Source: Craspedostauros australis (Eukaryota). Taken from it: a stretch of 20,000 nt of DNA. Below, piece after piece: positions 3,199 to 20,000 of the stretch. Location of the stretch: positions 45,962-65,961 of the forward strand of contig JALAGF010005407.1 in assembly GCA_030167865.1 (NCBI GenBank), in the 5' to 3' direction. Both the position numbers and the translations under genes were made by a program. Positions within the stretch are counted from its first letter, which is position 1. Every line of letters begins with the position of its first letter. The notes under the pieces are model-generated. The model was not told where the DNA came from and did no database searches. It saw nothing but the letters and a program-made list of their open reading frames with translations.

Positions 3199-6100
3199 CT
3201 ACCAAGAATAGATCGAAGCATCATACCCACGGCGATGTTCCGAAGTGTCGTGACGAGAAGCGGGTTGTGCTGCGTCAGGAGTTTGGCCGCAACCATCAGT
3301 AGTATCGCTGGCGATACTGTTTCCTCTCATGCCAATACTACTCGTCGAGGTGCTGCAGTCGTCGCTCTTCTCACTGATTTCGATGCTCGCAGTAGCTTGA
3401 CTGACGAAAGTGACGAGCGTGGGTTGCCGCGGCTGATTTGGGGTAGGCAATCCCGGGCCTCCTATTGGTTCCGGGAAGCTGCATTCTCCTTCTTTCTGAC
3501 TTGGCGCAGCGATGCTTGCGCACGATTGTTCTTGCGATGAATCACGCTGTTTCTTGACGTCCTCGGCTGAAGGCTCTTCATCGAGATCATCCATGAGGAT
3601 CGGGCTGTCATGACCCGTTGCCTCCACACAGATGGTGGGAGTGATCCAGCCACTTTGATCGTTTGGTGCAGGAAGTCCATCGTCCGAATCACCAGTCACC
3701 GCTGGTGGTTTCATGCTCAGACGAATTTCTTCGCTGACCCTGTCTCCATGATCCGCACAAGTTTCGATGTTTTGGTCAGCACCAGCATCGATGTCATCAT
3801 TAGTACCATCATTCTCGCTGGCATCAACGTTGCTTCGTCCTGCATTGCCATTCGCAAAAAACACAGCAGCATCACCGTGTGCATGGCCATCTTCACTTCC
3901 GCAATTCGTGTTGCCCTTATCACCGTCATGAGCGCTGCCGATGTTGGTGCGACTTGAATGCGCACCTCTGCCACTGACGTCGTCGCTGCCGCCACTGCCA
4001 CCGCCACAATCGCTGCTCCTGCTGATTCCACCGACGGATGTGCTCTGGGAGAAATGATCGACCCCCGACGCTTGCGCAAGATAGTCTTCGCGCTCCGAAG
4101 TAGTAGTTACGCCATGCTCCATCGTCGCATCCGCGCAGTCTTCGTTATCGCCCGAGACCAGATCAATCATCTCTGGATCAGCCTTGTGATCTTTCGCCTT
4201 GTCCGAGTCTTGTGAACGCGTCTGTCGCATGACGCCTCTCAGCTGACATCTGCGGTTGCGCTCAAACCATGTTACCGGCGGCGGTTCTTGGACACCAGCG
4301 GAGGCTTCGACAAGAGATGATGCAGCACTGCTGTCATCGTCATCGCCATCATCACCGTCGTGGTCATGTTCATCAATATTATTGCCGCTGCCGTCGTGTT
4401 CGTGCGCGGAGAAGGCATAAGCACAGTAGTATGGTTCCTCCGAGTTGATGTCCCCACCTTCGTCACTGCAGCAGTCGACAGCGTCGCGGTAGGTCTCTGA
4501 ATCCCACGGAGAGTCTACGGCAATAGCTTGCTGCAGTTCCTTTTCATCTGACATTTGTGCATCATGCAACGTTTCCAGTTGGGCTTGAGGCGGTGGCGCA
4601 GCTGTCGATGTCCGACGGACAGCCGTCTTTCGAGCTCTTATCAGCGATCGGGGGTTAATGCTTGAAGCTCTTCGTGCGGAAGGCGCCTTCGATCGACTGC
4701 GCTTTCTCATTCTTTCGCGACCACCTGCGGTTGAGCGACGCCGAGAGGCTCTGGCAGATCCCGGGTTGGCACTTTTCCGCTTTTGGAGACGTTTTGGCCT
4801 GGCCGCCTCTTTGATTTTCAATGCCTCGGTGCCACCGTGAAAGAACCGATACAGGCCCCTCCTATTGACAGCTTTGTTCAAGAGCTCGGTTGGGAGATGG
4901 ATCAATTTCCCATGCTTGGGAAAGTCCAATGCGTGCGCGTAGGCATCAGCCAGCAACCCTCTCTCCTCCTCGTCGAACGCGAAGTGAATCCCCTTGCCAG
5001 TTGCACGGCTGTGGAGCATCCCGATCAGGCTCTGAATGTCCAAAGATTCAGCCATGTCAGCGATCTTCTGTTGGGTTTCATGAAACCAATTGTCCGACTT
5101 CGAGTCCTGCTTTGCGCCCGCACCCTCCATCGTGTTTGCGGTAGGTGCTGCTGCCGTGTCCGCAGCGGATTTCGCCAGCTTGGCTTCCTTGATCAGCACC
5201 TCGTCCCAGCACACCCAGTACCTGTCACCGTCGAGATCGCCGGAGGCGATGAGGGAGGGAAGTGGAGGTTCGCCATCTCGCGGCAAAGCAAAGTATATCT
5301 TCCCAACTGGTTGTGCCTGCAAGAAATTCCAATTCTCTACCGTCATGGTATCTGGTCTCTCCACGAGATGTTCCAAAACGCGTGCATGCTCCACCTTCAA
5401 GAAGGGTGCTCGCGTGACGAAGATCTTGGTGGTTTTGGGCCGGTCATTGCGCTGTCTCCAAATGTTGGCAATCCCCGTGACGTAGATGTGATCGAAAGGG
5501 ATTTGGCCCCCGGTCGAGTCCGAGACGCCAATCAGAGACTGGTCGTGGAGACGTTCTGTTGACCCTATGCGTCTCTTCTCAAAGTAGCGCTTGCATTCAT
5601 CCTCCGGGACCCCGAGCTTTCGCATGAAGGCTTCGTGGGAGAAAGAAGGCTTGTGATGCATCATGAGCTTGTCGATGCAGCTGTCTGGAAGTGTCTCGCC
5701 GTTGATCAGTTTTTGTACTGAGATATTATTTGCCGACGGGATGAAGCCAGTTTTTGTTATCACCATGACTCCAACGTCTTCGCCATAGGCCGTCTTTAGT
5801 GGATTTGGCGAGGGGCCGACCTTCATTTGCGTTGGATCCAGCTGGATGGGAGTGTTGCGGAAGACCGATGACTTGGTGGAGTACCAGTGCCGCCCTGATC
5901 CCTCGCTCGTGACATCGAGCATGCCTTTGAAGATTCCCTTGGAGGGGACGAAGAGCCGAACCTGAATGGCTGTGATGCCGAGCGCAACGGCCTTTGTCAT
6001 CCCCATCTTGAGAAACCAAGTCACTAGGTACTCCTGATCTATGGTGCCAGCACCGTCGTTGCCGTCACCTTCGTTCGCCACGTCGCAATCAGCGGCTGGG

Positions 6101-7425
6101 AAAAACAGGAAGGCTGGGTTGCGCTTTGTGCTACCAAAGAAGTGAGGTTCGGAGCTGAAGAGCTCGAGTCGGTCGATCCTCTTACGAACTGATATGCCCC
6201 TGAAGTCTGCGATTGATTGGAAGAAATGATCGATGTGGCTGCACGGTGGCATATTCGGCCCCCTCGTTTGGACGTAGAAGTAGTCCATGGAGCTCTTTAT
6301 TTCGGTGAAGCCATGTGTGCCTGGGGCGCGTCCTTGCTTCCGCTTGTGCGCGCGCCTTGCGATCAGTTCAAACGTCGATGTCTTCGACTCGTCCATGAGC
6401 TCGATGGGTGCTTTCTCGTGTGCCTCTTTTGCACTGATTGTTTTGGTGATTGTCAACAGCCGTTTCCCAAAGATGAACGAAAGGATGCAGGATGGCACGT
6501 TGACTTGTGCGGATGAGATGGTGATCTTCTTCACCTCGTGCGTGGAATTCATTTGGACGCCAGGTATTGCGAGTGTGTTGTTTGTAGTACTCGGTGCGGA
6601 CTTCGTGGTGGGGCTGGCACGAGAACCATCGAATTGGAATGCTTGGGCCCTGTCGTCGTCGTACAACCATGAGAGTGCCATGTCGTTCTTGGGTGAAACA
6701 TGCGTCTTGGGTCTGGGGCTGCCACGGGCAACGGCCTCCTTGGCTCTTTGGGCTCTCGAGCCTCCAGCTCTCTCGTATGTTTCTCGTGTTCGATCGTTCT
6801 GCGCAGCTGCTGCCTCGCTGCCCCCGCCGTGCCGATGAAGACCATGATTATCGATAAGATCATTGTTGTCGTCCTCGTCCTCGTGACTCCTGGAGGGGTT
6901 GACCAACGGGAGACCATCCGCGGACTCGCACAAGTATTGCGGAGTCGGTTCGGCATCATCGAAAAGGCTTGGGGGAAGTCTGTATCCCAGCAGCTTCCCA
7001 TTTCGACTTCGATGTTCGACCAATGCGAATGGCCCATGTCGACAAAGATCGTCCATGCCCAGCGTGAATGGCTCCACTTCCATACCTGCTTTGCGGGCCG
7101 GGTGCACCAGTGCTGCATAAAGATTGTCTTGCGGGTCCTCCCACACAGGAGAGTAGGTCGCGGTAGTCTCAGCGCCAGTGATGTGACCCGCCCGATCCTT
7201 GCCCGCCAACTCCCACAGCCAGGAGCTGTCATCTGATGGATCCATCTGCACAGCAACTGACCAGTCGTTGCTCTTGAATGTTCGCCTCAGTTGGGCAGTT
7301 GATCCTAATCCACCATTTTCGCCGCCTCCGTTGCTGTGGCAGCTGGAGTCGGGTTCATGGGGATAGACGATGTATGCAGGCAGCTTTGCGAGTCCACGGG
7401 GATCCGGATGTTGGCACAACGGCAT
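3199..7425 (-). CDS. Cellular (eukaryotic RNAi-type) RNA-dependent RNA polymerase, ~1408 aa from the first ATG
   Basis: Ordered RDR motifs: IADF...RLELFSS, NDGAGTI, IQVR...KGML, LIGVSDSTG, VTRAP, IYF...PLPSLIASGDLDGDRYWVCWD (DLDGD at 5224-5238), ALDFPKHG. The ORF-track start at 7566 is GTG; the first ATG is 7425. Confidence 0.9.
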   Translation of the reverse strand: MPLCQHPDPRGLAKLPAYIVYPHEPDSSCHSNGGGENGGLGSTAQLRRTFKSNDWSVAVQMDPSDDSSWLWELAGKDRAGHITGAETTATYSPVWEDPQDNLYAALVHPARKAGMEVEPFTLGMDDLCRHGPFALVEHRSRNGKLLGYRLPPSLFDDAEPTPQYLCESADGLPLVNPSRSHEDEDDNNDLIDNHGLHRHGGGSEAAAAQNDRTRETYERAGGSRAQRAKEAVARGSPRPKTHVSPKNDMALSWLYDDDRAQAFQFDGSRASPTTKSAPSTTNNTLAIPGVQMNSTHEVKKITISSAQVNVPSCILSFIFGKRLLTITKTISAKEAHEKAPIELMDESKTSTFELIARRAHKRKQGRAPGTHGFTEIKSSMDYFYVQTRGPNMPPCSHIDHFFQSIADFRGISVRKRIDRLELFSSEPHFFGSTKRNPAFLFFPAADCDVANEGDGNDGAGTIDQEYLVTWFLKMGMTKAVALGITAIQVRLFVPSKGIFKGMLDVTSEGSGRHWYSTKSSVFRNTPIQLDPTQMKVGPSPNPLKTAYGEDVGVMVITKTGFIPSANNISVQKLINGETLPDSCIDKLMMHHKPSFSHEAFMRKLGVPEDECKRYFEKRRIGSTERLHDQSLIGVSDSTGGQIPFDHIYVTGIANIWRQRNDRPKTTKIFVTRAPFLKVEHARVLEHLVERPDTMTVENWNFLQAQPVGKIYFALPRDGEPPLPSLIASGDLDGDRYWVCWDEVLIKEAKLAKSAADTAAAPTANTMEGAGAKQDSKSDNWFHETQQKIADMAESLDIQSLIGMLHSRATGKGIHFAFDEEERGLLADAYAHALDFPKHGKLIHLPTELLNKAVNRRGLYRFFHGGTEALKIKEAARPKRLQKRKSANPGSARASRRRSTAGGRERMRKRSRSKAPSARRASSINPRSLIRARKTAVRRTSTAAPPPQAQLETLHDAQMSDEKELQQAIAVDSPWDSETYRDAVDCCSDEGGDINSEEPYYCAYAFSAHEHDGSGNNIDEHDHDGDDGDDDDSSAASSLVEASAGVQEPPPVTWFERNRRCQLRGVMRQTRSQDSDKAKDHKADPEMIDLVSGDNEDCADATMEHGVTTTSEREDYLAQASGVDHFSQSTSVGGISRSSDCGGGSGGSDDVSGRGAHSSRTNIGSAHDGDKGNTNCGSEDGHAHGDAAVFFANGNAGRSNVDASENDGTNDDIDAGADQNIETCADHGDRVSEEIRLSMKPPAVTGDSDDGLPAPNDQSGWITPTICVEATGHDSPILMDDLDEEPSAEDVKKQRDSSQEQSCASIAAPSQKEGECSFPEPIGGPGLPTPNQPRQPTLVTFVSQATASIEISEKSDDCSTSTSSIGMRGNSIASDTTDGCGQTPDAAQPASRHDTSEHRRGYDASIYSW

Positions 7426-8074
7426 GATGGATTGTTGCCGCAGCGTCCGCAGTGACGACCGACGACAGTGACGACCGACGACGAGTAGCTCGTATGTGTG
7501 GAGTACAGGGGTCCACCTGATTGCGAAAGGGACGATGGAGGTCCCCAACAAGCGCCCTCCAGCCACTCAACCTGAACCTGAATCTGAACTGGCAGATGCG
7601 GTCGTTGTCGCCGCGAAGGTGTTTGCGCACTGATACCTCGTAAGTCTGTTATTATACCGAGACGGCAAAATCGGCTTGCATCGGCAATGCGTGCTGTTGG
7701 GGAGTGGAGGACAGTAGATATAGTAGTACGACGATGGTACCTGCTGATACTCGTGCCTGTATGCTACGGCGTGTTGAGGGGCGAGACAGCATGCGCAAGT
7801 GTAGTCGTGGGGTTTTGTGGTGCCACCTGATGTGTTCTGCGGGCGTGGACTCGATCCAGAATCTGGGAGATCCTTTTCCTTCTGGGCACACAACAAGAGG
7901 AGGGAGCATCTTCCGCCGTGCCGAAAAAGACACGAAAGAGAGTTCACGCTGTTTCTTGGTCGTGCGGGACTGTGGCTCGAACGGTCTGCACGCCGTCTGC
8001 CTAAGTCCTAGAGAAGTGTGGAGGAGAGAAGATTCTCCGGAGATGCTCCAGAGGCTAAGAACAGGACACTTTCC

Positions 8075-8358: not shown

Positions 8359-11300
8359 TCATTTCGGCATCATGGTTGGTTGTTGGGAGCCAAGGTTGCT
8401 GATGCCGCCAACCGTGCCGCTCGCACGTCGGTGCTGCATCTCAGCCGAAGTACGTCGGTGCCGCGAGTCCCGTAGCTCTCGCTCGTTTACCTTATGGATG
8501 AATGCGGCATTCTCATCCAGCAGCTTGGCCCGTCGCTCCAACGACTTTATCCGCGCCGCCTCCTTCTTGGTCTTGTACCGCAAGTACGCACCGGAAATCG
8601 TGTTGATGGATTTTTCCAACTTCTTTTGTAAGCGAATGTACTTCATTTGCTCGCGAACATCGGCTCCGCTCACCGGTGATGCCGTCGTCGCGATGCGCAT
8701 GATGCTGTGGGTGCGGTCCATGCGGTACGTCCAGACCCCGAAGGAGATGATGGCGAAGAACTGCTGCACCCTCTTTCCCATCTGATGGAACATCACGATC
8801 ATGGCGACGAATCGTTGCATCGACGCGATCCGGGTTTCGTACAGTTCCTGCGCAAAGTGCTGGCTCTTGGCGACGGAGAAGTCGACTTCCTCCTGCGCCT
8901 TGGAGGAATTCAACCTGCGGAGGTTGAAACCAAAGTACCTCTCCACGCTGGCTTCGATTTGGATGACGCCGTTCTGGTCCTTGTTGCTTGCCGGCAACAC
9001 GAGCGCCGTATCTCCGATGTTATTCTTCGTGAGGAGGTCCACCATCTGATTGTACGTGATGCGACCTATACCGTCGGTGTCGGCTTCGTGAAAGTAACCC
9101 AACAGGCGCTGCTTAGAGATTTTGATGTTCATGTGTCTTGGCAGCACCAGCAAGTCCTGTTCGGTCAGGTATCCGTTGCCTTGGCTGTCGAGCGTGTTGA
9201 AGAGCTTCTGCAACCGATCGGAGTACTTTGTCTTCTCAATCGACCGATCGATCACGAATTGGACGTCCAGGTCATGGTTGTCAGGTGCGGGTTGGTTGTT
9301 CTCGAACATCACCGAGGATTCGTGCATCGACGAAAAACGGAAGACCTGTCTCATGGATCGTAACGTCCCACCAGCCGAGTTTCCAAGAACCAGCGAAGAC
9401 CTGCGTGGCGTCTGCTGCCCGGGAGGCATGGAGGCTGAGGATCGCTGCGATGCTCGCTTGTTGGATTGACCTTCGAAGTTGCTGTAAGCGCCCAGGAAGG
9501 CAACGGCCGAACGGTTCTTCATGACGCTGGGATGGATGCTGCTGTTCAATTCGCCATCGTCGGCAGCGGATTGCGAGGAGCCATTTCGCAAGGGCCTGAA
9601 TTGTTTTCCAAATATGCTGGATTTGCGTTTGGACGTCGAATTGGATGCATCCGTCATGATACTCGTCGAACTGCGCTTGGTCTTGGAATTCATGTCGTCA
9701 TCCGATCCGGAAACACTGCGTTCGCTGTGACTGCGAACGTCAGACTCCAGCAACATCCGCTCGCACAGGAACAACGGGCGACGGCGCTTCAAGAATACGG
9801 CGGCCTTGGTCAAAGGCAGCTTGAATGGATTGTGACCGATCGTGATGCTCTCGCAGGTTCCTCCCCAGCTCTGGATGCTGCTGGCTTGGTTGACGGCCAA
9901 GCATGTAGACGCCTCCGCCGTCGACAATGCGGACAGCCTACCGTCCGGACGCCCGCAGATCACGAGCGCGCCGCGCACAACCCGATGTGTGTGACGGTGG
10001 ACCAAGTGATCGGTGGCATTGCCACTCAGGACGTTGAGACCGGCGATACTGTACGAGCAGGCGAAGATCTTGCTGAGGAAAGCCTCTGCGGATTGTGCCA
10101 CCCACGGAATGTCGCCGATCACGACGGTACGGCCGACCATGCGGTGCAAAAGATTGCGGCCTTGGAACAACCGAACCAGCGTGACGTTGATTTGGGGCAA
10201 CCAAAAGTAGATGGCAGCATCGATCAATCGGATCAGGTAAATGAAGTCGCTGGAGGCATCCAGCCCAGCTCCGAAGGCAATGGCCGACACGATCGGATAT
10301 CCAGAGACGACGGTTGCAAAGACGTAGATGAAGCTCAGGATGTAGGCACGGGCGTTCTCAAGGATATGTTCGGCCCACAAGTTGCCTGCGCTGCGGAGAA
10401 TGTCGTCGATGCCATCCTCGCCTTCCACCTTGATGCTGTTTCCGTATTCGTTGATACCGATGATGTCAGCCAAGGCCGAGATATTCAGCTGATTGCACCG
10501 CTCCAGAATTTGCAGATCTTGCTCCGTCATGGTGGCTCCCGTAATGCGTCGGTATCGTTCTTCGCTCAGAATCACCGCACTCAAGTATTCCAACAGGTTG
10601 GTGAGCAGCTGATGCGTTGCAACGACCGAGATCGAACTCGGCTCAGCCGGGCGCATCCCAACCTCAGTGGTGAAGATGCGGTGCTTTAGGGCGCTTTCGA
10701 TGTTGATCCCATATGAGCTATCCATGCCCCGAAGCTGCTTGCCGATTTGGGTGTCCCATTCGGACGTGACAACGAAGAGGTTGTCGGTGGATCCCTGCAG
10801 CAGGTTGGAGCAGTTGAGCGGAGCGAAGGTGCCACCGCTCTGGCTGACGATGATGATGATGGTATCGCTCAGATCCTGTGTCTGCGGAGCGTACGGAAAT
10901 CCAAATGCCGGGATGGCGATCTCCTGACCGAATAATCCTAGAAGTTTGTTGCTGCTCGTTGCTTGGATCTTGAGCTTGGGGAAGGCCTTTTGGAGGTCGG
11001 ATCCGAACTGCTCAGCCAACCACAGCGACACCTCGCACCCTGTCAGCAGAATATCGATGGAATCGGAGGATCGGCCTTCGAGCTTTGCCTTCAGGCGACG
11101 GCGCAAGCAGCTCGAGAGGTTGTAGGCAGCCAGCCGGTTTAGGCTCGTGCTGGCCTTGGTAGCTTTGAACTCGTCTTGGATCTTGCTGCACACCGCGGGT
11201 ATCTCGTTGATGTCTTCGAGGATGGGATCGTCGCTATCGTCCTTCAGCGGCCTGATCAGCGCATTGCGAGACAGCGACGTCATGCGATGGAACAGCTGCA

Positions 11301-13434
11301 CCAACGTGTTGGCCTGCCCAACGCTCTTGTCAAGACGGAACGTGATGAGCTTCACGTCGCCGTTCATCATTTCGTGCGCTGCCAGGTTACGGTTTGGCAA
11401 CGAAAGGAGGGCGTTGGTTGGCATTCTGGATCGTGGCGTGTTGGGAGGCACGTTGATCTCACGCTGCGCGTTTGGATCAGGCCGTGAACTCCAGTCCAGC
11501 AGCACGATCTCGCCACCGAGATCATCAAGATCAAGCCGGAGGGAATCCAAGTCGACGTCCCGTCGCGAAGCCTCGAGGTTGCGATCACCCGGTAGCTCCG
11601 TGTTGAGGCCAGATTTGACGGCAGCTTGCTCCGAGCCGAAGCAGATGAGTCCCTTCGACGGATAGAACGCAATGGACATGCTCTGTCCCTGTGCTGCAAT
11701 GCACACCTGCCTTCGAGCATCCAGCGATGACGAGATGACCAGGCCGAAGGATCCCTTAGCATTGGTGAGGAAGCTCTTGGTGGTGAAGAAGAGGTCGTTG
11801 TCGAAAAAGGCATTGACCGTCGCCCTGCAAAAGTCTGTCAGAGTGGCGATCGTGGTGAAATCGTCGCCTTTGCCAGTTTCCATGAGCGAGGTCTGCTGGT
11901 AGTGGTTGCTGTCCGCTTCGACGAATCCGAGAAGGATACTGAGCGCGGCATCATTTTCCTTGACAGCCACACACAACGTTTGTGCCAAATCGTTGCGGCC
12001 CATTGTGGTATCCAAGTTCATCATGATATCGTCATTGGTGACGTATTCTTTCAACGATGTCTCGAAGATGTCTCCCACCTGTTCGAAGAAAGCATAGTCG
12101 GGAAACACGAAGGATGGCGAATCGGTGATGGTACTGTTCGCAAGTCCCAGCGCCAGCGCGTAGCGTGCTGATAGGCCGAAGCAGCCCTGGGTACGCAGGA
12201 CGTCCACCATCCCGGCTACGGCACAGGAATCGACTGTCGATGGCATGGGAGCTCCTGTCACCTTCTGAAGCCAGGTTTGGACGACGTCCAGATCGTAGCT
12301 GACCCCGTTGACGGCGTAAAAGTCAAAGTCGCCATTGTGGGTGATGTAGTTCTCTACACGACGGTTGGTCACGGGCCCTTGTTTTGCGTAGACAGCCACC
12401 GCCTTGCTTGTGTCGTAAACACGACGGAGGGTCGGTGGGGTCCAGATGTGCGGGTGGGTGCCGTCCAAGGTGGAGATTGAGGTAGTCGCAAATCGGGTGT
12501 GCCCCGACATGATGGGAACGAAACCGGAATTGGGGAAGCGACCGGATTTACCGAGGATGTCCTTATCAACTTTGGCCCGCACCAGCTTGCTGAGGTTCGT
12601 TCGTTTCTTGTTGACCACACGGCAGCGGATACCGACGAGGTCGCTGGGTGCCTTCTGCGCATTGCTCTTGCCATTTTCGTCGGGGTAGTACGTTACGACA
12701 CCGCCGGATTGTGCACCTCGCATCATGGTGACACGCACCATGCGTTCAAGCACTTCCATGGCGGCTTCACCGTTGTTGTGCGCAAGCCAGTTGTGGTGCA
12801 GCAGGATGACGCCGAAGTTGCCACAGAACAGTGGTAGTGCTGCTTGTGCTGAGAATTCATCCGGTTCGGAGACAAGCGGGAGAAGCGGCCGGAATCCCAT
12901 CAAATCCGTTGAAATGGCTTCCATCGCCACGATCGCAGCGGAGTACACCATTGGATTGGTCATGACGATGGAATCAGCGAAGGTCATGTTGGAAGACGCA
13001 TCGCAGCACGAAGTCTTGCAGCGGCTACTGGCCTTGGATGCAGTCCGCGCAACATGAAGCAAGAGCGAGATGAATAGCATGGCGCTGATGATCCATCCCG
13101 CATGGCGACTCTCGCGCATGCCTCCTTCGCTGAGGAAGGCCGGCACGTTGACTTGGCGTTGGATGATGAAATGGAAGAGGAGATGACAAATTGATCCGCC
13201 ATTGGCTTCCACAATTCCGTTCCAGGCCGCAGACGCATCGAGACCTGAGCCTTCGGATGGGGCGTACCCCCCATCATAGTCTGTAGTCGTGGCAGCAGAT
13301 GCGATGGCCACCACGACATGCGAAGCCTCGTGCAAGGCTCCGAAGAGGAGGTACCAGCCCAGGAGCTGACGCATCGGCTTTGCCGCTGTGCTCAGTGGTG
13401 TCGACATCATCGATTTCGCCATTGGTGCTGTCAT
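8359..13434 (-). CDS. GlmS-like multidomain protein (~1691 aa): HExxH membrane N-domain, class II glutamine amidotransferase, SIS domain, TM hairpin, EF-hand pair
   Basis: GATase-II motifs CGNFG (12811-12825), MMRGAQSGG, GHTRFAT (12484-12504), THPH, THNGDFD (HNG 12331-12339), VDS. SIS motifs LLTGCEVSLW and IIVSQSGGT (10828-10845). EF-hand-like loops DSQGNGYLTEQD and DTDGIGRITYNQ. The ORF-track start is TTG; the first ATG is 13434. Confidence 0.85.
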   Translation of the reverse strand: MTAPMAKSMMSTPLSTAAKPMRQLLGWYLLFGALHEASHVVVAIASAATTTDYDGGYAPSEGSGLDASAAWNGIVEANGGSICHLLFHFIIQRQVNVPAFLSEGGMRESRHAGWIISAMLFISLLLHVARTASKASSRCKTSCCDASSNMTFADSIVMTNPMVYSAAIVAMEAISTDLMGFRPLLPLVSEPDEFSAQAALPLFCGNFGVILLHHNWLAHNNGEAAMEVLERMVRVTMMRGAQSGGVVTYYPDENGKSNAQKAPSDLVGIRCRVVNKKRTNLSKLVRAKVDKDILGKSGRFPNSGFVPIMSGHTRFATTSISTLDGTHPHIWTPPTLRRVYDTSKAVAVYAKQGPVTNRRVENYITHNGDFDFYAVNGVSYDLDVVQTWLQKVTGAPMPSTVDSCAVAGMVDVLRTQGCFGLSARYALALGLANSTITDSPSFVFPDYAFFEQVGDIFETSLKEYVTNDDIMMNLDTTMGRNDLAQTLCVAVKENDAALSILLGFVEADSNHYQQTSLMETGKGDDFTTIATLTDFCRATVNAFFDNDLFFTTKSFLTNAKGSFGLVISSSLDARRQVCIAAQGQSMSIAFYPSKGLICFGSEQAAVKSGLNTELPGDRNLEASRRDVDLDSLRLDLDDLGGEIVLLDWSSRPDPNAQREINVPPNTPRSRMPTNALLSLPNRNLAAHEMMNGDVKLITFRLDKSVGQANTLVQLFHRMTSLSRNALIRPLKDDSDDPILEDINEIPAVCSKIQDEFKATKASTSLNRLAAYNLSSCLRRRLKAKLEGRSSDSIDILLTGCEVSLWLAEQFGSDLQKAFPKLKIQATSSNKLLGLFGQEIAIPAFGFPYAPQTQDLSDTIIIIVSQSGGTFAPLNCSNLLQGSTDNLFVVTSEWDTQIGKQLRGMDSSYGINIESALKHRIFTTEVGMRPAEPSSISVVATHQLLTNLLEYLSAVILSEERYRRITGATMTEQDLQILERCNQLNISALADIIGINEYGNSIKVEGEDGIDDILRSAGNLWAEHILENARAYILSFIYVFATVVSGYPIVSAIAFGAGLDASSDFIYLIRLIDAAIYFWLPQINVTLVRLFQGRNLLHRMVGRTVVIGDIPWVAQSAEAFLSKIFACSYSIAGLNVLSGNATDHLVHRHTHRVVRGALVICGRPDGRLSALSTAEASTCLAVNQASSIQSWGGTCESITIGHNPFKLPLTKAAVFLKRRRPLFLCERMLLESDVRSHSERSVSGSDDDMNSKTKRSSTSIMTDASNSTSKRKSSIFGKQFRPLRNGSSQSAADDGELNSSIHPSVMKNRSAVAFLGAYSNFEGQSNKRASQRSSASMPPGQQTPRRSSLVLGNSAGGTLRSMRQVFRFSSMHESSVMFENNQPAPDNHDLDVQFVIDRSIEKTKYSDRLQKLFNTLDSQGNGYLTEQDLLVLPRHMNIKISKQRLLGYFHEADTDGIGRITYNQMVDLLTKNNIGDTALVLPASNKDQNGVIQIEASVERYFGFNLRRLNSSKAQEEVDFSVAKSQHFAQELYETRIASMQRFVAMIVMFHQMGKRVQQFFAIISFGVWTYRMDRTHSIMRIATTASPVSGADVREQMKYIRLQKKLEKSINTISGAYLRYKTKKEAARIKSLERRAKLLDENAAFIHKVNERELRDSRHRRTSAEMQHRRASGTVGGISNLGSQQPTMMPK

Positions 13435-13642
13435 TGGTGATGCCTTGATGGGTGGCGCTGATTGCGTATTGCTACTCGTATAGTACGAGTACAATAGAAA
13501 TGCTCACAGGCAGACGAGGTAGTGAGGTGGTGAAGAGCCTTGCCCTGAGCTGGTGATGGCTGTACGTGCATGTGCGGATTATGATGACATTGAAAGAGGT
13601 GACGAAAGGGAAGCGAGTTGGTTCAGTTTGGTTGAGGTTGCG

Positions 13643-15891: not shown

Positions 15892-16130
15892 TGTTATCAT
15901 GAATTAGTCCAGCTGATCGATACGACACCAAACCCGAACCAGCACGCCGCTGCGTCAGCAACGCCACGATTAGGAGCGCTCGCGACGCACGCAACATTTA
16001 GCGAACTTGACGCACAGTCAAGACCACAGTAGAATAAGCTCACAATCCCATGGGACCTTCCATGGGCCCTCTCAATGGGCACAACACAACTTTAGCACAC
16101 ACACACTCAGACGCACACTTGCCCGTAGCA
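15892..16130 (+). repeat. Putative 5' LTR (TGTTAT...GTAGCA, ~239 bp)
   Basis: Ends in CA 4 nt before the PBS. TGTTAT at 15892 is an imperfect inverted match to GTAGCA. The second LTR is not in the window, so the start is unconfirmed. Confidence 0.45.
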
Positions 16131-16134
16131 ATTA

Positions 16135-16145
16135 GGTTATGAGCC
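16135..16145 (+). promoter_or_regulatory. Primer binding site GGTTATGAGCC, complementary to the anticodon arm of initiator tRNA-Met (half-tRNA priming)
   Basis: Reverse complement GGCTCATAACC contains the CAT anticodon loop. This is the same PBS type as Drosophila copia and yeast Ty5. It lies between a CA terminus and gag. Confidence 0.85.
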
Positions 16146-16327
16146 TGGACCGCAGGCACTGCTTGTTCGTCACCCGCCGCACCACACGGTGCTAAATGCA
16201 CCATGGCGAACGCGCTCCATCACAGCGATGCCGCGTGTTGATGCGCATTGCTGACAACGACCAAAACACAAACAAAACTCTCACCGTCGCAATCATCCAA
16301 CACAAACAACAAAACAACGCAAAGCTC

Positions 16328-18346
16328 ATGGACCCGCATCGTCAACAAACAACGAACTCAACCTCCTCCAGTGACACAGACAACTCCGACGCGCCTTCGC
16401 TAGCAGAAGAGCCCGAGGTCGCACTCTCCGAGACCGCAGCCGACGCTCCTGTCCCTCCTCTCGGACGACAACAACAACAAGCGGAGACCGCAGCCGACGC
16501 ACTCGTCCCTCCTCTCCAGCCACCTGAACAAGTCGAGACCGCAGCCGACATCACTGTCCCTCCTCTCGCACAACAACAACCTGAGACCGCAACACCTGCC
16601 TCTCTTCATCAACAACCTGCAGCGACTGAGACCGCTCAAGCAGCCTCTTCTCCTGCACCTCAAGAGACAGCACAGGACCCAGGCGGACGCGCCTCTCCTT
16701 CTGTTTCAACAACAACAACAACAACACGAGCTGCACAGGACACCAGCACACAGGCAGCTGGCGTCTTCGCACAGCAACCACAACTTCCGCGTGACAGAAC
16801 TCCTCTTCGGACAGAACCGGAACTTCTTCCGGCAGAAGGCGATATTCTGGACTTAACCTTGGACACTTTTGAATCCCAAGCCCTTGAGGAACTCCAGTCA
16901 GCCCTCGCAGATCCTGGCAACATTCGTCCTGGCATTCTTGCTGACACAAATCTCACTGTCGAAATTCCTGCTGACGTCACTGACACAGTAACCGGTGAAA
17001 CCGCCATTCCAACTGTTCGCGCGACCCACGTTTCGGCCTCATCCACGACTCGACCAAGGATGTCACGTTTCAGCGCGGACCCCGATGATGCGGCCACCCG
17101 AGCCAACAACCGTATCCTCATTACCAAGGAAGAACGCGCTGCACTCGAAGGCAAGGACCGCACCAAGGTCAGAGAACAAGCCGTTGAGCCTCTCGAGCCG
17201 CTCTTTGTGATGGTGAACCAAACCACTGCCATCAATGACAACAAGTTCCTCGAAAAGAACTATGACTTCGCCCGACTCAAGGAAAACCTCCGCAATCGAC
17301 TCAAGATGTACTCAATGTACGAGCCATTCCAAATCATTCCATCCACTCGGAACGAGGCCGGGGATCTTGACTTCGATCGAAGCGCCGCAGACGATACCTT
17401 CATTGATCTGCTGGACAACGCATTCACGCTCGACCAAGACGTTGTACTCCGTTCTACCGAGATCTACGCTCTCTTTGGTGGGAAAGTCAATCAGCAGAAC
17501 CTCCAATGGTCGCTTGAGCTTATCCTTTCCTCTTGTGACGACTCTCTCATCGAAGCCATTGCTGCTCGCATGCAACAGATCCCGGAGGAGCTCCGCACAG
17601 GACCAATGGCCTACTACTTTATGGAATGCATCGCCGCAAGGACAACATCTGAAACTGCTCGAGCCATCACGAACAAGATCGCTCAGTTCCGGATGACCAA
17701 CATCAAAAGCCAAAACATCGAAACATTCTGCCAGATCATGAGAGCAGCCATTCATCGAATCAAAGCCTCACCACTTGGGATTCCAGCCGACATGAACGAC
17801 ATGCTCTTGAAGGTCATCAGGACCTGCACAAACAAACCCTTCGTCGATTACTTCAACATGCGTGAAGCTGCACTCGACGCAACTGGCAATGACCCTTTCA
17901 CTTGGGAGCAAATCCTCGAAATGGCTCTGAAGAAGTACACCAGCCTCATNNNNNNNNNNNNNNNNNNNNNNNNNNNNNNNNNNNNNNNNNNNNNNNNNNN
18001 NNNNNNNNNNNNNNNNNNNNNNNNNNNNNNNNNNNNNNNNNNNNNNNNNNNNNNNNNNNNNNNNNNNNNNGGAGGTCAGCCCATCGACTACACGCCTCCA
18101 AAGCAGGGCGAGGCACACGAGCGCATCACCCACGGCAAGACTGAATACTGGTGTGACCATGAAACCTGCAAACGATGGGGCAACCATCCAACCAACGGAC
18201 ACGACGACTTCGTCTCTCGCCAACGCAACCGTCGCGGCCGAGGCAGAAAGGGATCCTCAAACAACTCCAACAAGCAAGCGGAACCAAAGGGCAACGACGA
18301 CGAAACTCGCAAGCTTTTGAGATTCTCGGAACAAGAGGGTTTTTAA
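16328..18346 (+). CDS. gag: Gag (interrupted by a 121-N gap at 17950-18070)
   Basis: Long ORF after the PBS: low-complexity N-terminus, helical capsid-like middle, C-terminal YWCDHETCKRWGNHPTNGH knuckle and basic RNRRGRGRK patch. ATG 16328 is chosen over 16196; the start is uncertain. Confidence 0.8.
   Translation: MDPHRQQTTNSTSSSDTDNSDAPSLAEEPEVALSETAADAPVPPLGRQQQQAETAADALVPPLQPPEQVETAADITVPPLAQQQPETATPASLHQQPAATETAQAASSPAPQETAQDPGGRASPSVSTTTTTTRAAQDTSTQAAGVFAQQPQLPRDRTPLRTEPELLPAEGDILDLTLDTFESQALEELQSALADPGNIRPGILADTNLTVEIPADVTDTVTGETAIPTVRATHVSASSTTRPRMSRFSADPDDAATRANNRILITKEERAALEGKDRTKVREQAVEPLEPLFVMVNQTTAINDNKFLEKNYDFARLKENLRNRLKMYSMYEPFQIIPSTRNEAGDLDFDRSAADDTFIDLLDNAFTLDQDVVLRSTEIYALFGGKVNQQNLQWSLELILSSCDDSLIEAIAARMQQIPEELRTGPMAYYFMECIAARTTSETARAITNKIAQFRMTNIKSQNIETFCQIMRAAIHRIKASPLGIPADMNDMLLKVIRTCTNKPFVDYFNMREAALDATGNDPFTWEQILEMALKKYTSLXXXXXXXXXXXXXXXXXXXXXXXXXXXXXXXXXXXXXXXXXGGQPIDYTPPKQGEAHERITHGKTEYWCDHETCKRWGNHPTNGHDDFVSRQRNRRGRGRKGSSNNSNKQAEPKGNDDETRKLLRFSEQEGF
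16430..16663 (+). repeat. Degenerate in-frame tandem repeat in gag (ETAADxxVPPLxQQQ)
   Basis: Units begin GAGACCGC at 16430, 16484, 16535, 16583 and 16628 (lengths 54, 51, 48, 45, 36 nt). Confidence 0.9.
18337..18343 (+). promoter_or_regulatory. -1 ribosomal frameshift slippery heptamer G_GGT_TTT
   Basis: X_XXY_YYZ in the gag frame immediately before the gag TAA. The pol ORF is in the -1 frame (GGG TTT TTA AAG). Confidence 0.75.
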
Positions 18347-20000
18347 AGGCAGCTTTCATTGTCGTAAGTCCGATCCTGCTATTCCCGTCTCTCCTCTGGC
18401 ACCTGCTCGCATCCACATTCACAACATACGTCCTGGCATTGTCTGCCAACTGTCACCAAACCTTCAACCACGTCAACATCATGCGCGGACGCAAGAACTA
18501 CCGAGTCTGTCGCTCCAAAGCACCACCGACCATATTCGCCTCTACCCAACGTATGAGGATGGGCTTCTGGAGTCGTCTCTTCCTTCTATCCGCTGTGATG
18601 ATCCCATCGACGACGCTATTCTTCCTCTCAACTCTCACTACCGATCGCTGGAAACACCCACAACGCATTTACAACAAACACCAGCCTCTCGACTATGATC
18701 AACTGCTCTTTGGCGATGGATGGAACGACGAGCACGCACGCAAGAACGACCCGCTATCAGCTCGCTTCCTTCATCTCTCCGGATTCCATGATGAGTTTGA
18801 CTCATTCATGATGAACCGACGCATTGTCGCAGATGCTCAACAACGCGCAATGTCTCTACCTCCGTCTCAACCAAAGCACTGCTTTTCGATCACTCCATCT
18901 TTCTTCACCCTTCAGTCAGATAAACTTCGATCACAGGTGCAAGCCGTCTCCTATCTGGCCTCCACTGCCTATGAAGCATCCAAAGCACCGAACTTTATGG
19001 ACGTTCTCGTCTCCCGTCACTACCATACTCCCAGTCTCACCAACAAACGCGCCATGTGTCCCATTATCCTCGACACTGGGTGCTCATTCTCCATGACATA
19101 TCGAAAGGAGGATTTCATAACGGGACCACATCTCGGTAACTTCGGGGACATCCAAACAGCAAGCGGCAAACTTCAAATCTCTGGCATAGGCACTGTCCAA
19201 TGGCAAGTGCTATCCCTGAATGGAAACATCGCACCTGTCCGAACCAGAGCACATTACGTGGAGGAAGCACACATCCGCCTCTTCTCTCCGCAAGCCTACG
19301 CTCAATACCACAGCATCAAGACCGATCGCCAACCCTATTACGGAGACACGGAATCCTTCTCATTCGAGTTGGAGGATGGCAGCGTAATGAACTGTCCTAT
19401 CCATCCATTCACGAATATTNNNNNNNNNNNNNNNNNNNNNNNNNNNNNNNNNNNNNNNNNNNNNNNNNNGACATCCAAACAGCAAGCGGCAAACTTCAAA
19501 TCTCTGGCATAGGCACTGTCCAATGGCAAGTGCTATCCCTGAATGGAAACATCGCACCTGTCCGAACCAGAGCACATTACGTGGAGGAAGCACACATCCG
19601 CCTCTTCTCTCCGCAAGCCTACGCTCAATACCACAGCATCAAGACCGATCGCCAACCNNNNNNNNNNNNNNNNNNNNNNNNNNNNNNNNNGTTGGAGGAT
19701 GGCAGCGTAATGAACTGTCCTATCCATCCATTCACGAATATTCCGACCGCATTGGCGCGCGATCCTCAACACCAACTCGCAGACAAACCGGATGCAATAC
19801 CCTGCCGATGCAAGTCTCACACTTGTTTTGAGTGCCAAATCACCCACGCTCTTCCATCCGTTCTCTCACCTGCAAACGAGAACCTCACCGCAAATCAGAA
19901 ACAGCTGCTACTGGACCATCAACGCTTCGGACATCTCGGAATGGATCATGTGAAACAACTTTATCGACTTACACGCAGAGTAAGACGTCTCTCCGGACCT
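18337..20000 (+). CDS. pol: Pol polyprotein, N-terminal part (transframe region, aspartic protease, start of integrase); frame broken only by gaps and the duplication
   Basis: PIILDTGCSFSMT (DTG 19072-19080), ISGIGTVQW, AHYVEEAHIRLFSPQ. After the gaps: ENLTANQKQLLLDHQRFGHLGMDHVKQL (HQRFGH 19917-19934). Open to the window end. Confidence 0.85.
19147..19742 (+). repeat. 273-bp direct duplication (19147-19419 / 19470-19742) flanking a 50-N gap; probable assembly overlap artefact
   Basis: The sequences match at a constant offset of 323 on both sides of the internal 33-N gap. Confidence 0.9.

Follow-up and report, generated by a model that had tools for sequence, protein, structure and literature searches.

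How can a glutamine amidotransferase work if its nucleophile, which should be the first residue of the chain, is encoded far inside the gene? The question is raised by a gene on the reverse strand of a 20,000-nucleotide stretch of Craspedostauros australis DNA (contig JALAGF010005407.1, positions 45,962 to 65,961; the whole stretch is called the window below). Class II, or N-terminal nucleophile (Ntn), amidotransferases use the free α-amino group of Cys1, whereas in the primary product of this gene the catalytic Cys is residue 204 and follows a membrane domain that resembles the site-2 proteases (S2Ps, family M50). The best single explanation, to which a probability of about 0.4 is assigned, is that the protein is a self-activating zymogen, the blocked Cys being freed with the participation of the protease-like domain fused in front of it.

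The open reading frame (ORF; 8359-13494, reverse strand) runs unbroken through 1711 codons. From its first ATG, at 13434, the coding sequence, stop included, gives a protein of 1691 amino acids as a single gene with no intron needed, and residue numbers are counted from this Met. Homologues of 1000-1800 amino acids could be aligned to the protein over its full length. A first-pass annotation of the same DNA had placed an S2P-like HExxH domain directly before a buried Ntn-type Cys, and its positions were all found to be right for HEASH (residues 35-39), RHAGW (110-114), the Asp (D177) and CGNFG (C204). The Cys is internal, as was claimed, 27 residues past D177 and preceded by LPLF, with the nearest upstream Met 24 residues away. 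Three simpler origins of the layout were tried and rejected. A plain targeting-peptide leader, a Met brought before the Cys by splicing and a fusion artefact of the gene model are each refuted by the unbroken frame in the window, together with transcriptome ORFs designated 'complete' in which both motifs occur (e.g. P0004).

The combination of an S2P-like domain with an internal Ntn Cys is supported as a conserved architecture of diatoms, pelagophytes, dinoflagellates and a green alga. When residues 1-700 of the translated ORF (P0001) were used as query, 175 proteins were found, the best 120 of which were analysed; the closest relatives were diatom proteins. With the query included, CGNFG was present in 116 of the 121 sequences, the other five being models that begin downstream of the Cys, and HExxH stood upstream of it in 102. 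Where CGNFG occurred without HExxH (14 sequences), 11 models begin inside or after the domain and one has HELLGH; P0075 and P0100 carry unrelated N-terminal sequence at the place where the HExxH helix would be. A profile of the N-terminal domain (alignment A1, 32 sequences, mean column identity 26%) was then compared with 1.84 billion representative proteins, giving 415 matches at an expectation value (E) ≤ 0.001, 266 of them at E ≤ 1e-10. The best 150 of these 415 matches all belonged to the fused family; 141 were new, and HExxH followed by CGNFG was found in 130 of the 141. The 11 exceptions comprised two proteins with CGNVG or CGNLG, one with YELYH and eight that stop just past the Asp motif. 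These eight short models (P0230, P0232, P0240, P0251, P0256, P0259, P0260 and P0262) pass into unrelated tails soon after TDL, several tails beginning Q-V or E-V, which looks like read-through into a linker intron between the protease domain and the Cys in some lineages. The window gene itself has no interruption at the linker position of the suspected intron.

Alignment of 342 proteins to the A1 model gave 323 matches, of which 279 span the whole domain. Conservation of the H, E, H and D, which the first-pass annotation had named as the check to be made, was found in 278 (H35), 279 (E36), 279 (H39) and 279 (D177) of the 279, and residue 172 was acidic in every one (E 217, D 62). R93 and G113 were each kept in 264, W114 in 261 and S117 in 276; within CGNFG, C204, G205, N206 and the last G were each present in all 279 and the F in 277. 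In 313 proteins with the Cys motif, not one had this Cys among its first 14 residues, and MCG-type starts were absent (0/313). The N-terminal domain was missing from only two of the 313, both of them models that begin in the linker. The counts are somewhat inflated because the sequences were gathered by queries and profiles containing the same positions; despite this bias, the conservation of the motifs is plainly, as judged from the alignment, well beyond chance, the surroundings being clearly variable. By source names, the members come from the diatoms Thalassiosira, Pseudo-nitzschia, Cylindrotheca, Seminavis, Epithemia and Mayamaea, from a pelagophyte, from the green alga Pycnococcus, and from Symbiodiniaceae and other dinoflagellates. 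Two Epithemia clementina members, P0048 and P0084, share an 885-kb contig, their locus tags (ACA910_009849 and ACA910_009847) differing by two, which suggests a local duplication.

The N-terminal domain is supported as a diverged member of the M50/S2P superfamily, with the motif order HExxH, (R)HxGW..S, E...TD. Its AlphaFold model, obtained on A1 with a mean predicted local distance difference test value (pLDDT) of 81.5 and a predicted template modelling score of 0.78, has its long helices at 14-49, 103-141 and 152-178; HEASH falls within the first, and the stretch from the first to the second holds a strand and two short helices. In an exhaustive VIA-align fold search of 48,161 chains only six reached Z ≥ 5, and the S2Ps among them took ranks 1, 2, 4 and 5: M. 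jannaschii S2P (3b4r_B, Z 6.1, root-mean-square deviation 5.2 Å, 129 residues aligned), SpoIVFB (8vjl_A, Z 5.6) and the RseP orthologues 7w6z_A (Z 5.5) and 9j83_A (Z 5.2). These four alignments cover 114-129 residues, and their start offsets, read from the aligned ranges, place H35 on the HExxH of the enzymes. The assignment carries weight because one small family fills the top of the list, and not because of the Z values themselves. In the Pfam comparisons Peptidase_M50 was the sole recurrent signal, below threshold in 3 of 32 sequences; among 141 representatives it appeared in 11 and M50B in one, all below threshold and mostly over profile positions 2-106, other families appearing at most twice. 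A word-indexed profile search of proteins of 69-364 amino acids gave 47 matches, and the eight that were read, the most divergent included, carry the family motifs. Two divergent members exceed the 26-bit cut-off of PF13398 (Peptidase_M50B) over about 120 residues (P0288, 26.2 bits; P0291, 26.6 bits), and P0289 comes to 25.0 bits. HEASH was placed on HEFGH when A1 was aligned to Escherichia coli RseP with hhalign, at a probability of only 1-2%, and hmmsearch did likewise at low significance; look-alikes of the domain in the ESM Atlas, with scores ≤ 0.80, were uninformative.

With MjS2P, SpoIVFB, RseP and the families PF02163 and PF13398 the domain shares HExxH in a membrane helix followed by a short β element, a second helix with a small-residue motif (here RHAGW) and an invariant Asp on the next helix. 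It differs in having only three long helices and no PDZ or CBS domain, in being fused to a large enzyme, in an Asp motif that reads TDL at a helix end instead of (N)xxPxxxLDG, and in a window sequence that lies under every Pfam threshold. A His-His-Asp zinc site may be formed, and the domain is probably, though by no means surely, catalytically active. A prediction of the complex of residues 1-180 with the linker and amidotransferase (181-670) and Zn, run without family alignments, scored 0.00 and speaks neither for nor against such a site. Taken on their own, the identities of this domain and of the body behind it are highly probable.

For the body, structural models support a class II (Ntn) amidotransferase joined to an SIS enzyme, of the GlmS/GFAT type, as had been expected for the amidotransferase part. 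The 1000 residues from the Cys were modelled at a mean pLDDT of 76.9, the last ~100 falling below 50, and the Cys opens the first strand (2-8 of the model). Foldseek matched this model to E. coli GlmS (2j6h_A) at E 2e-11 over 805 columns, to human GFAT-1 (6r4f_B) at E 7e-11, to PurF (6ott_A) at E 1e-5 and to the isolated GlmS glutaminase domain (1xff_B) at E 7e-5, and also to NagB-II/SIS structures. At the level of sequence the relationship is faint. No GATase_2, GATase_6, GATase_7 or SIS match above the Pfam cut-offs was found in the window protein or its parts, and relatives gave sub-threshold signals of GATase_6 (E 0.049 in P0148) and SIS (E 0.0032 in P0221). A single-sequence search of PDB sequences with the body returned nothing, the profile of alignment A3 gave 0 matches there, and that of alignment A2 was swamped by EF-hand proteins. 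The key residues of RGAQSGG (R-G), GHTRFAT (R), HNGD (N-G) and VDS (D) are nevertheless invariant in 47 sequences, as are those of SQSGGT. GHTRFAT aligns with AHTRWAT of E. coli GlmS (hhalign with A3, probability 1-2%; the same in hmmsearch), and the other motif equivalences were drawn by eye from the E. coli GlmS sequence. In this class the glutamine site is made up of the Arg of HTRW/FAT, an oxyanion hole formed by Asn-Gly, an Asp binding the α-amino group and the Arg-Gly loop. GlmS and GFAT are thus matched in fold over ~800 columns and in motifs of the CGIVG, RGYDSAG, HTRWATHG, HNG, DTE and SQSGET types. The window protein departs from them in its identity of only ~10-13%, in the absence of any Pfam or PDB sequence match, in its internal Cys and in its large inserts, hydrophobic segments, EF-hands and conserved C-terminal module. 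On these residues the body looks catalytically intact, with its nucleophile internal at residue 204.

The segment between the two domains was surveyed in 274 proteins. The distance from the Asp to the Cys ranges from 14 to 53 residues (median 22), and, apart from its last three residues, which are kept hydrophobic, the linker varies both in length and in sequence. P1 is F in 136, Y in 53, L in 44 and M in one; P2 is F in 154 and L in 65; P3 is T, V or I in 180, giving the consensus T-F-F | C-G-N-F-G. The model of the N-terminal domain contains two strands, one at 94-98, right after R93, and one at 199-203, the five residues before the Cys, and because there are only these two they should pair with each other. 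Human S2P cuts SREBP-2 at a Leu|Cys bond. RseA is cut by RseP at Ala108|Cys109 (PMC10024687). In SpoIVFB the substrate pro-sigma-K is held next to HExxH by β-sheet augmentation of a reentrant loop (PMC11486902). It is proposed from the model that the pairing of the pre-Cys strand with the loop after HExxH represents substrate augmentation of the S2P type.

Glutaminase activity requires a cut at the very bond that precedes the Cys, because class II enzymes need a free α-amino group on Cys1. In the mechanism put forward here, the gene product would be a single-chain membrane pro-enzyme, made up of an M50/S2P-like domain (1-180), a linker of 14-53 residues in the family and a GlmS/GFAT-like amidotransferase-isomerase, in which Cys204 would be blocked for as long as the N-terminal domain stays attached. 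The hydrophobic stretch before the Cys would add a strand to the β-loop that comes behind the HExxH helix, as an S2P substrate does, and the fused protease domain would cut before the Cys, or be needed for the cut, either in cis or on an adjacent molecule. Later hydrophobic segments would keep the enzyme in the membrane, and the EF-hands may add control by Ca2+. It is to the fused protease domain that the evidence points, because the two domains were never seen apart in the sequences analysed, both keep their catalytic residues and P3-P1 are hydrophobic; that this domain is the agent that frees Cys1 is still best regarded as doubtful, with the chances somewhat against it. Zinc binding, the cleavage, the cutting agent and the role of Ca2+ all belong to the proposal and are to be read conditionally. 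A close likeness is that to SpoIVFB and pro-sigma-K, where an S2P strips a hydrophobic N-terminal pro-sequence and so turns on a soluble protein on the same side of the membrane (PMC11486902). In that case protease and target are encoded by different genes and the pro-sequence has 21 residues, whereas in the window protein the putative protease would form the pro-region of the very chain that it cuts.

Several results weigh against this reading. The cleavage step is a prediction from sequence and models, and the pre-Cys strand 199-203 was modelled at low confidence (pLDDT 54-63). The comparison with M50 peptidases called for by the first-pass annotation came out divided: S2Ps head the exhaustive fold search, at low absolute scores (Z ~5-6, deviations of 4-5 Å), but Foldseek found no PDB match to the N-terminal model at E ≤ 0.001. 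Pfam gave no M50 match to the window's own N-terminal domain even at E ≤ 10, and the A1 profile recovered no S2P among PDB sequences, its matches being pilin and porcupine at chance level. The Asp motif, TDL, is unlike the LDG of S2Ps, and the His-His-Asp site is putative. Net charge is positive for the N-tail in 148 of 275 proteins and for loop 2 in 182 of 279, and negative for loop 1 in 176 of 279, a bias that suggests an orientation opposite to that of bacterial S2Ps, with the catalytic face and the enzyme body non-cytosolic, which would be odd for an enzyme of this kind. Finally, in the model the Cys opens a core strand of the folded amidotransferase, where a membrane-embedded active site would hardly reach it, and Ntn enzymes can remove their own propeptides, so that no separate protease is needed.

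This last point leads to the strongest rival, in which Cys204 frees itself by a thiol attack on the peptide bond before it (an N-to-S acyl shift) and the M50-like domain is a pro-region that is discarded or retained; it may then cleave another membrane substrate, trim the linker or serve as an anchor. Self-removal of propeptides is known for class II amidotransferases such as Bacillus subtilis PurF and for Ntn hydrolases. In B. subtilis and vertebrate PurF and in glutamate synthase a leader before the catalytic Cys must go to leave a free α-amino group; these leaders, of ~11-40 residues and regarded as self-removing, lack a fold and a catalytic motif, whereas the leader in the window protein is modelled as a folded domain and carries HExxH. 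A Cys that opens the first core strand in a folded Ntn domain has the geometry used for self-processing, and a linker variable in everything except its last three residues agrees with it. Autoproteolysis would, however, leave unexplained an invariant HExxH...D domain that is always attached (in the best 150 of the 415 matches and in the 313 proteins with the Cys motif), and the bulky P1 (F, Y or L in 233 of 274) is unlike that of self-processing Ntn precursors, where P1 is often small. It is considered a serious competitor, yet an unlikely one.

It is also conceivable that the chain is never cut, and that a GlmS-like body with a blocked Cys senses glutamine or a sugar phosphate (and Ca2+) and regulates a protease acting on other proteins. 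S2Ps commonly bear soluble regulatory domains, and the family is too far from GlmS for any Pfam GATase or SIS match above cut-off. The CBS domain of SpoIVFB and the PDZ domains of RseP are regulatory parts of this sort (PMC11486902). On the other hand, all glutaminase residues, the Cys and CGNFG included, are invariant, which is more than ligand binding should need, and the hydrophobic conservation of P3-P1 would then require another explanation, so that this alternative appears distinctly improbable. Least probable by far is a mere membrane anchor or targeting leader in which HExxH is a relic and the fold likeness that of any small helical bundle. Helical models often reach Z ~5-6 by chance, and a chain of NOX2, which is unrelated, ranks third in the fold search at Z 5.5. 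Such a relic is hard to reconcile with H, E, H and D that are invariant in ~279 sequences of several algal phyla amid surroundings at 26% mean column identity, with four of the six best chains coming from one small family, or with the independent Pfam M50 and M50B signals.

The features of the gene are collected in Table 1. The EF-hands named by the first-pass annotation were recovered by Pfam over residues 1426-1487 of P0001, and the EF-hand region was also the sole match in an NCBIfam scan of the whole protein. The transmembrane hairpin of the same annotation stands in part: a conserved hydrophobic hairpin is present near the C-terminus, but its Kyte-Doolittle mean stays under 1.5. This hairpin and the RMDRTHSIMRIATTASPVSGADVR motif rank among the most conserved parts of the family and have no Pfam match. 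The hydropathy peak of the protein is another segment (10261-10347, reverse strand), situated between the two halves of the SIS-like region, and it may be a membrane hairpin inserted into the isomerase domain.

Table 1. Features of the gene for the proposed zymogen, in window coordinates
Feature	Position	Strand	Basis
Whole coding sequence	8359..13434	-	unbroken ORF; full-length homologue alignment
M50/S2P-like membrane domain, residues 1-180	12895..13434	-	AlphaFold model, fold matches, Pfam M50/M50B in relatives
HEASH (H35, E36, H39), putative zinc ligands and catalytic base, in first long helix	13318..13332	-	conservation
R93 and strand 94-98 (QVNVP), candidate counterpart of the S2P membrane-reentrant β-loop	13141..13158	-	conservation, model
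RHAGWIIS, residues 110-117, beginning of second long helix (RHAGW 110-114 at 13093-13107)	13084..13107	-	conservation
EAISTD (E172...D177), C-terminal end of third long helix, candidate third zinc ligand (D177 at 12904-12906)	12904..12921	-	conservation
Variable linker 178-203, ending in hydrophobic P3-P1 (here P-L-F)	12826..12903	-	linker survey, 274 proteins
CGNFG, Ntn-type catalytic Cys204 (12823-12825), start of first amidotransferase strand	12811..12825	-	conservation, model
Class II glutamine-amidotransferase-like domain, ~residues 204-650 (RGAQSGG, GHTRFATTS, HNGD, VDS)	11485..12825	-	Foldseek, invariant motifs
SIS-like isomerase region, ~residues 763-1203 (SQSGGT at 10828-10845)	9826..11148	-	Foldseek
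Hydrophobic helix within SIS-like region, residues 1030-1058	10261..10347	-	Kyte-Doolittle 1.81
EF-hand pair (loops 9154-9189 and 9046-9081)	9010..9252	-	Pfam EF-hand_7 E 3.5e-9; calmodulin matches in PDB
Conserved C-terminal hydrophobic hairpin and RMDRTHSIMRIATTASPVSGADVR motif	8653..8814	-	near-invariant columns in 47 and 44 sequences

Elsewhere in the window, an ORF at 1250-2806 on the forward strand encodes the seven-helix domain of a class C G-protein-coupled receptor (Pfam 7tm_3, E 4.8e-36), and one of 1455 amino acids at 3199-7566 on the reverse strand contains a cellular RNA-dependent RNA polymerase domain (Pfam RdRP, E 3.4e-18). The region 16000-20000 has a strongly negative GC skew and a G+C content below that of the rest of the window, and a forward-strand ORF at 18175-19512 carries a retrotransposon Pol β-barrel domain (Pfam Pol_BBD, E 3.2e-6); the region is probably a copia-type element. 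With these neighbours, the gene is taken to lie in eukaryotic nuclear DNA.

Both halves of the protein belong to textbook enzyme classes, and their fusion is the new part as far as the literature could be searched. No description of an architecture joining an S2P-like domain to an amidotransferase was found, as the first-pass annotation had supposed, in a search whose reach excluded subscription journals and database annotations. It is tempting to speculate further that the S2P module anchors a GlmS-like amidotransferase in the membrane, forms its pro-region and activates it by a conserved hydrophobic|Cys cut that creates the catalytic N-terminus, and would thus be the first intramembrane metalloprotease with its own chain as dedicated substrate. 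Through the EF-hands the activation or the enzyme would depend on Ca2+, and diatoms, pelagophytes, dinoflagellates and a number of green algae would have in common a step of nitrogen/amino-sugar metabolism gated by proteolysis and calcium; in this complete form the idea is possible but rather unlikely. If the protease half does free the catalytic Cys, an Ntn enzyme would be made by a new route, and this would be a rare intramembrane protease-substrate pair known from sequence alone, offering a clean system for the study of substrate recognition by S2Ps. The family is conserved under strong constraint across the principal marine phytoplankton groups and in the symbionts of corals, and a glutamine-dependent enzyme that is probably regulated there bears on their nitrogen and amino-sugar (chitin, glycan) metabolism.

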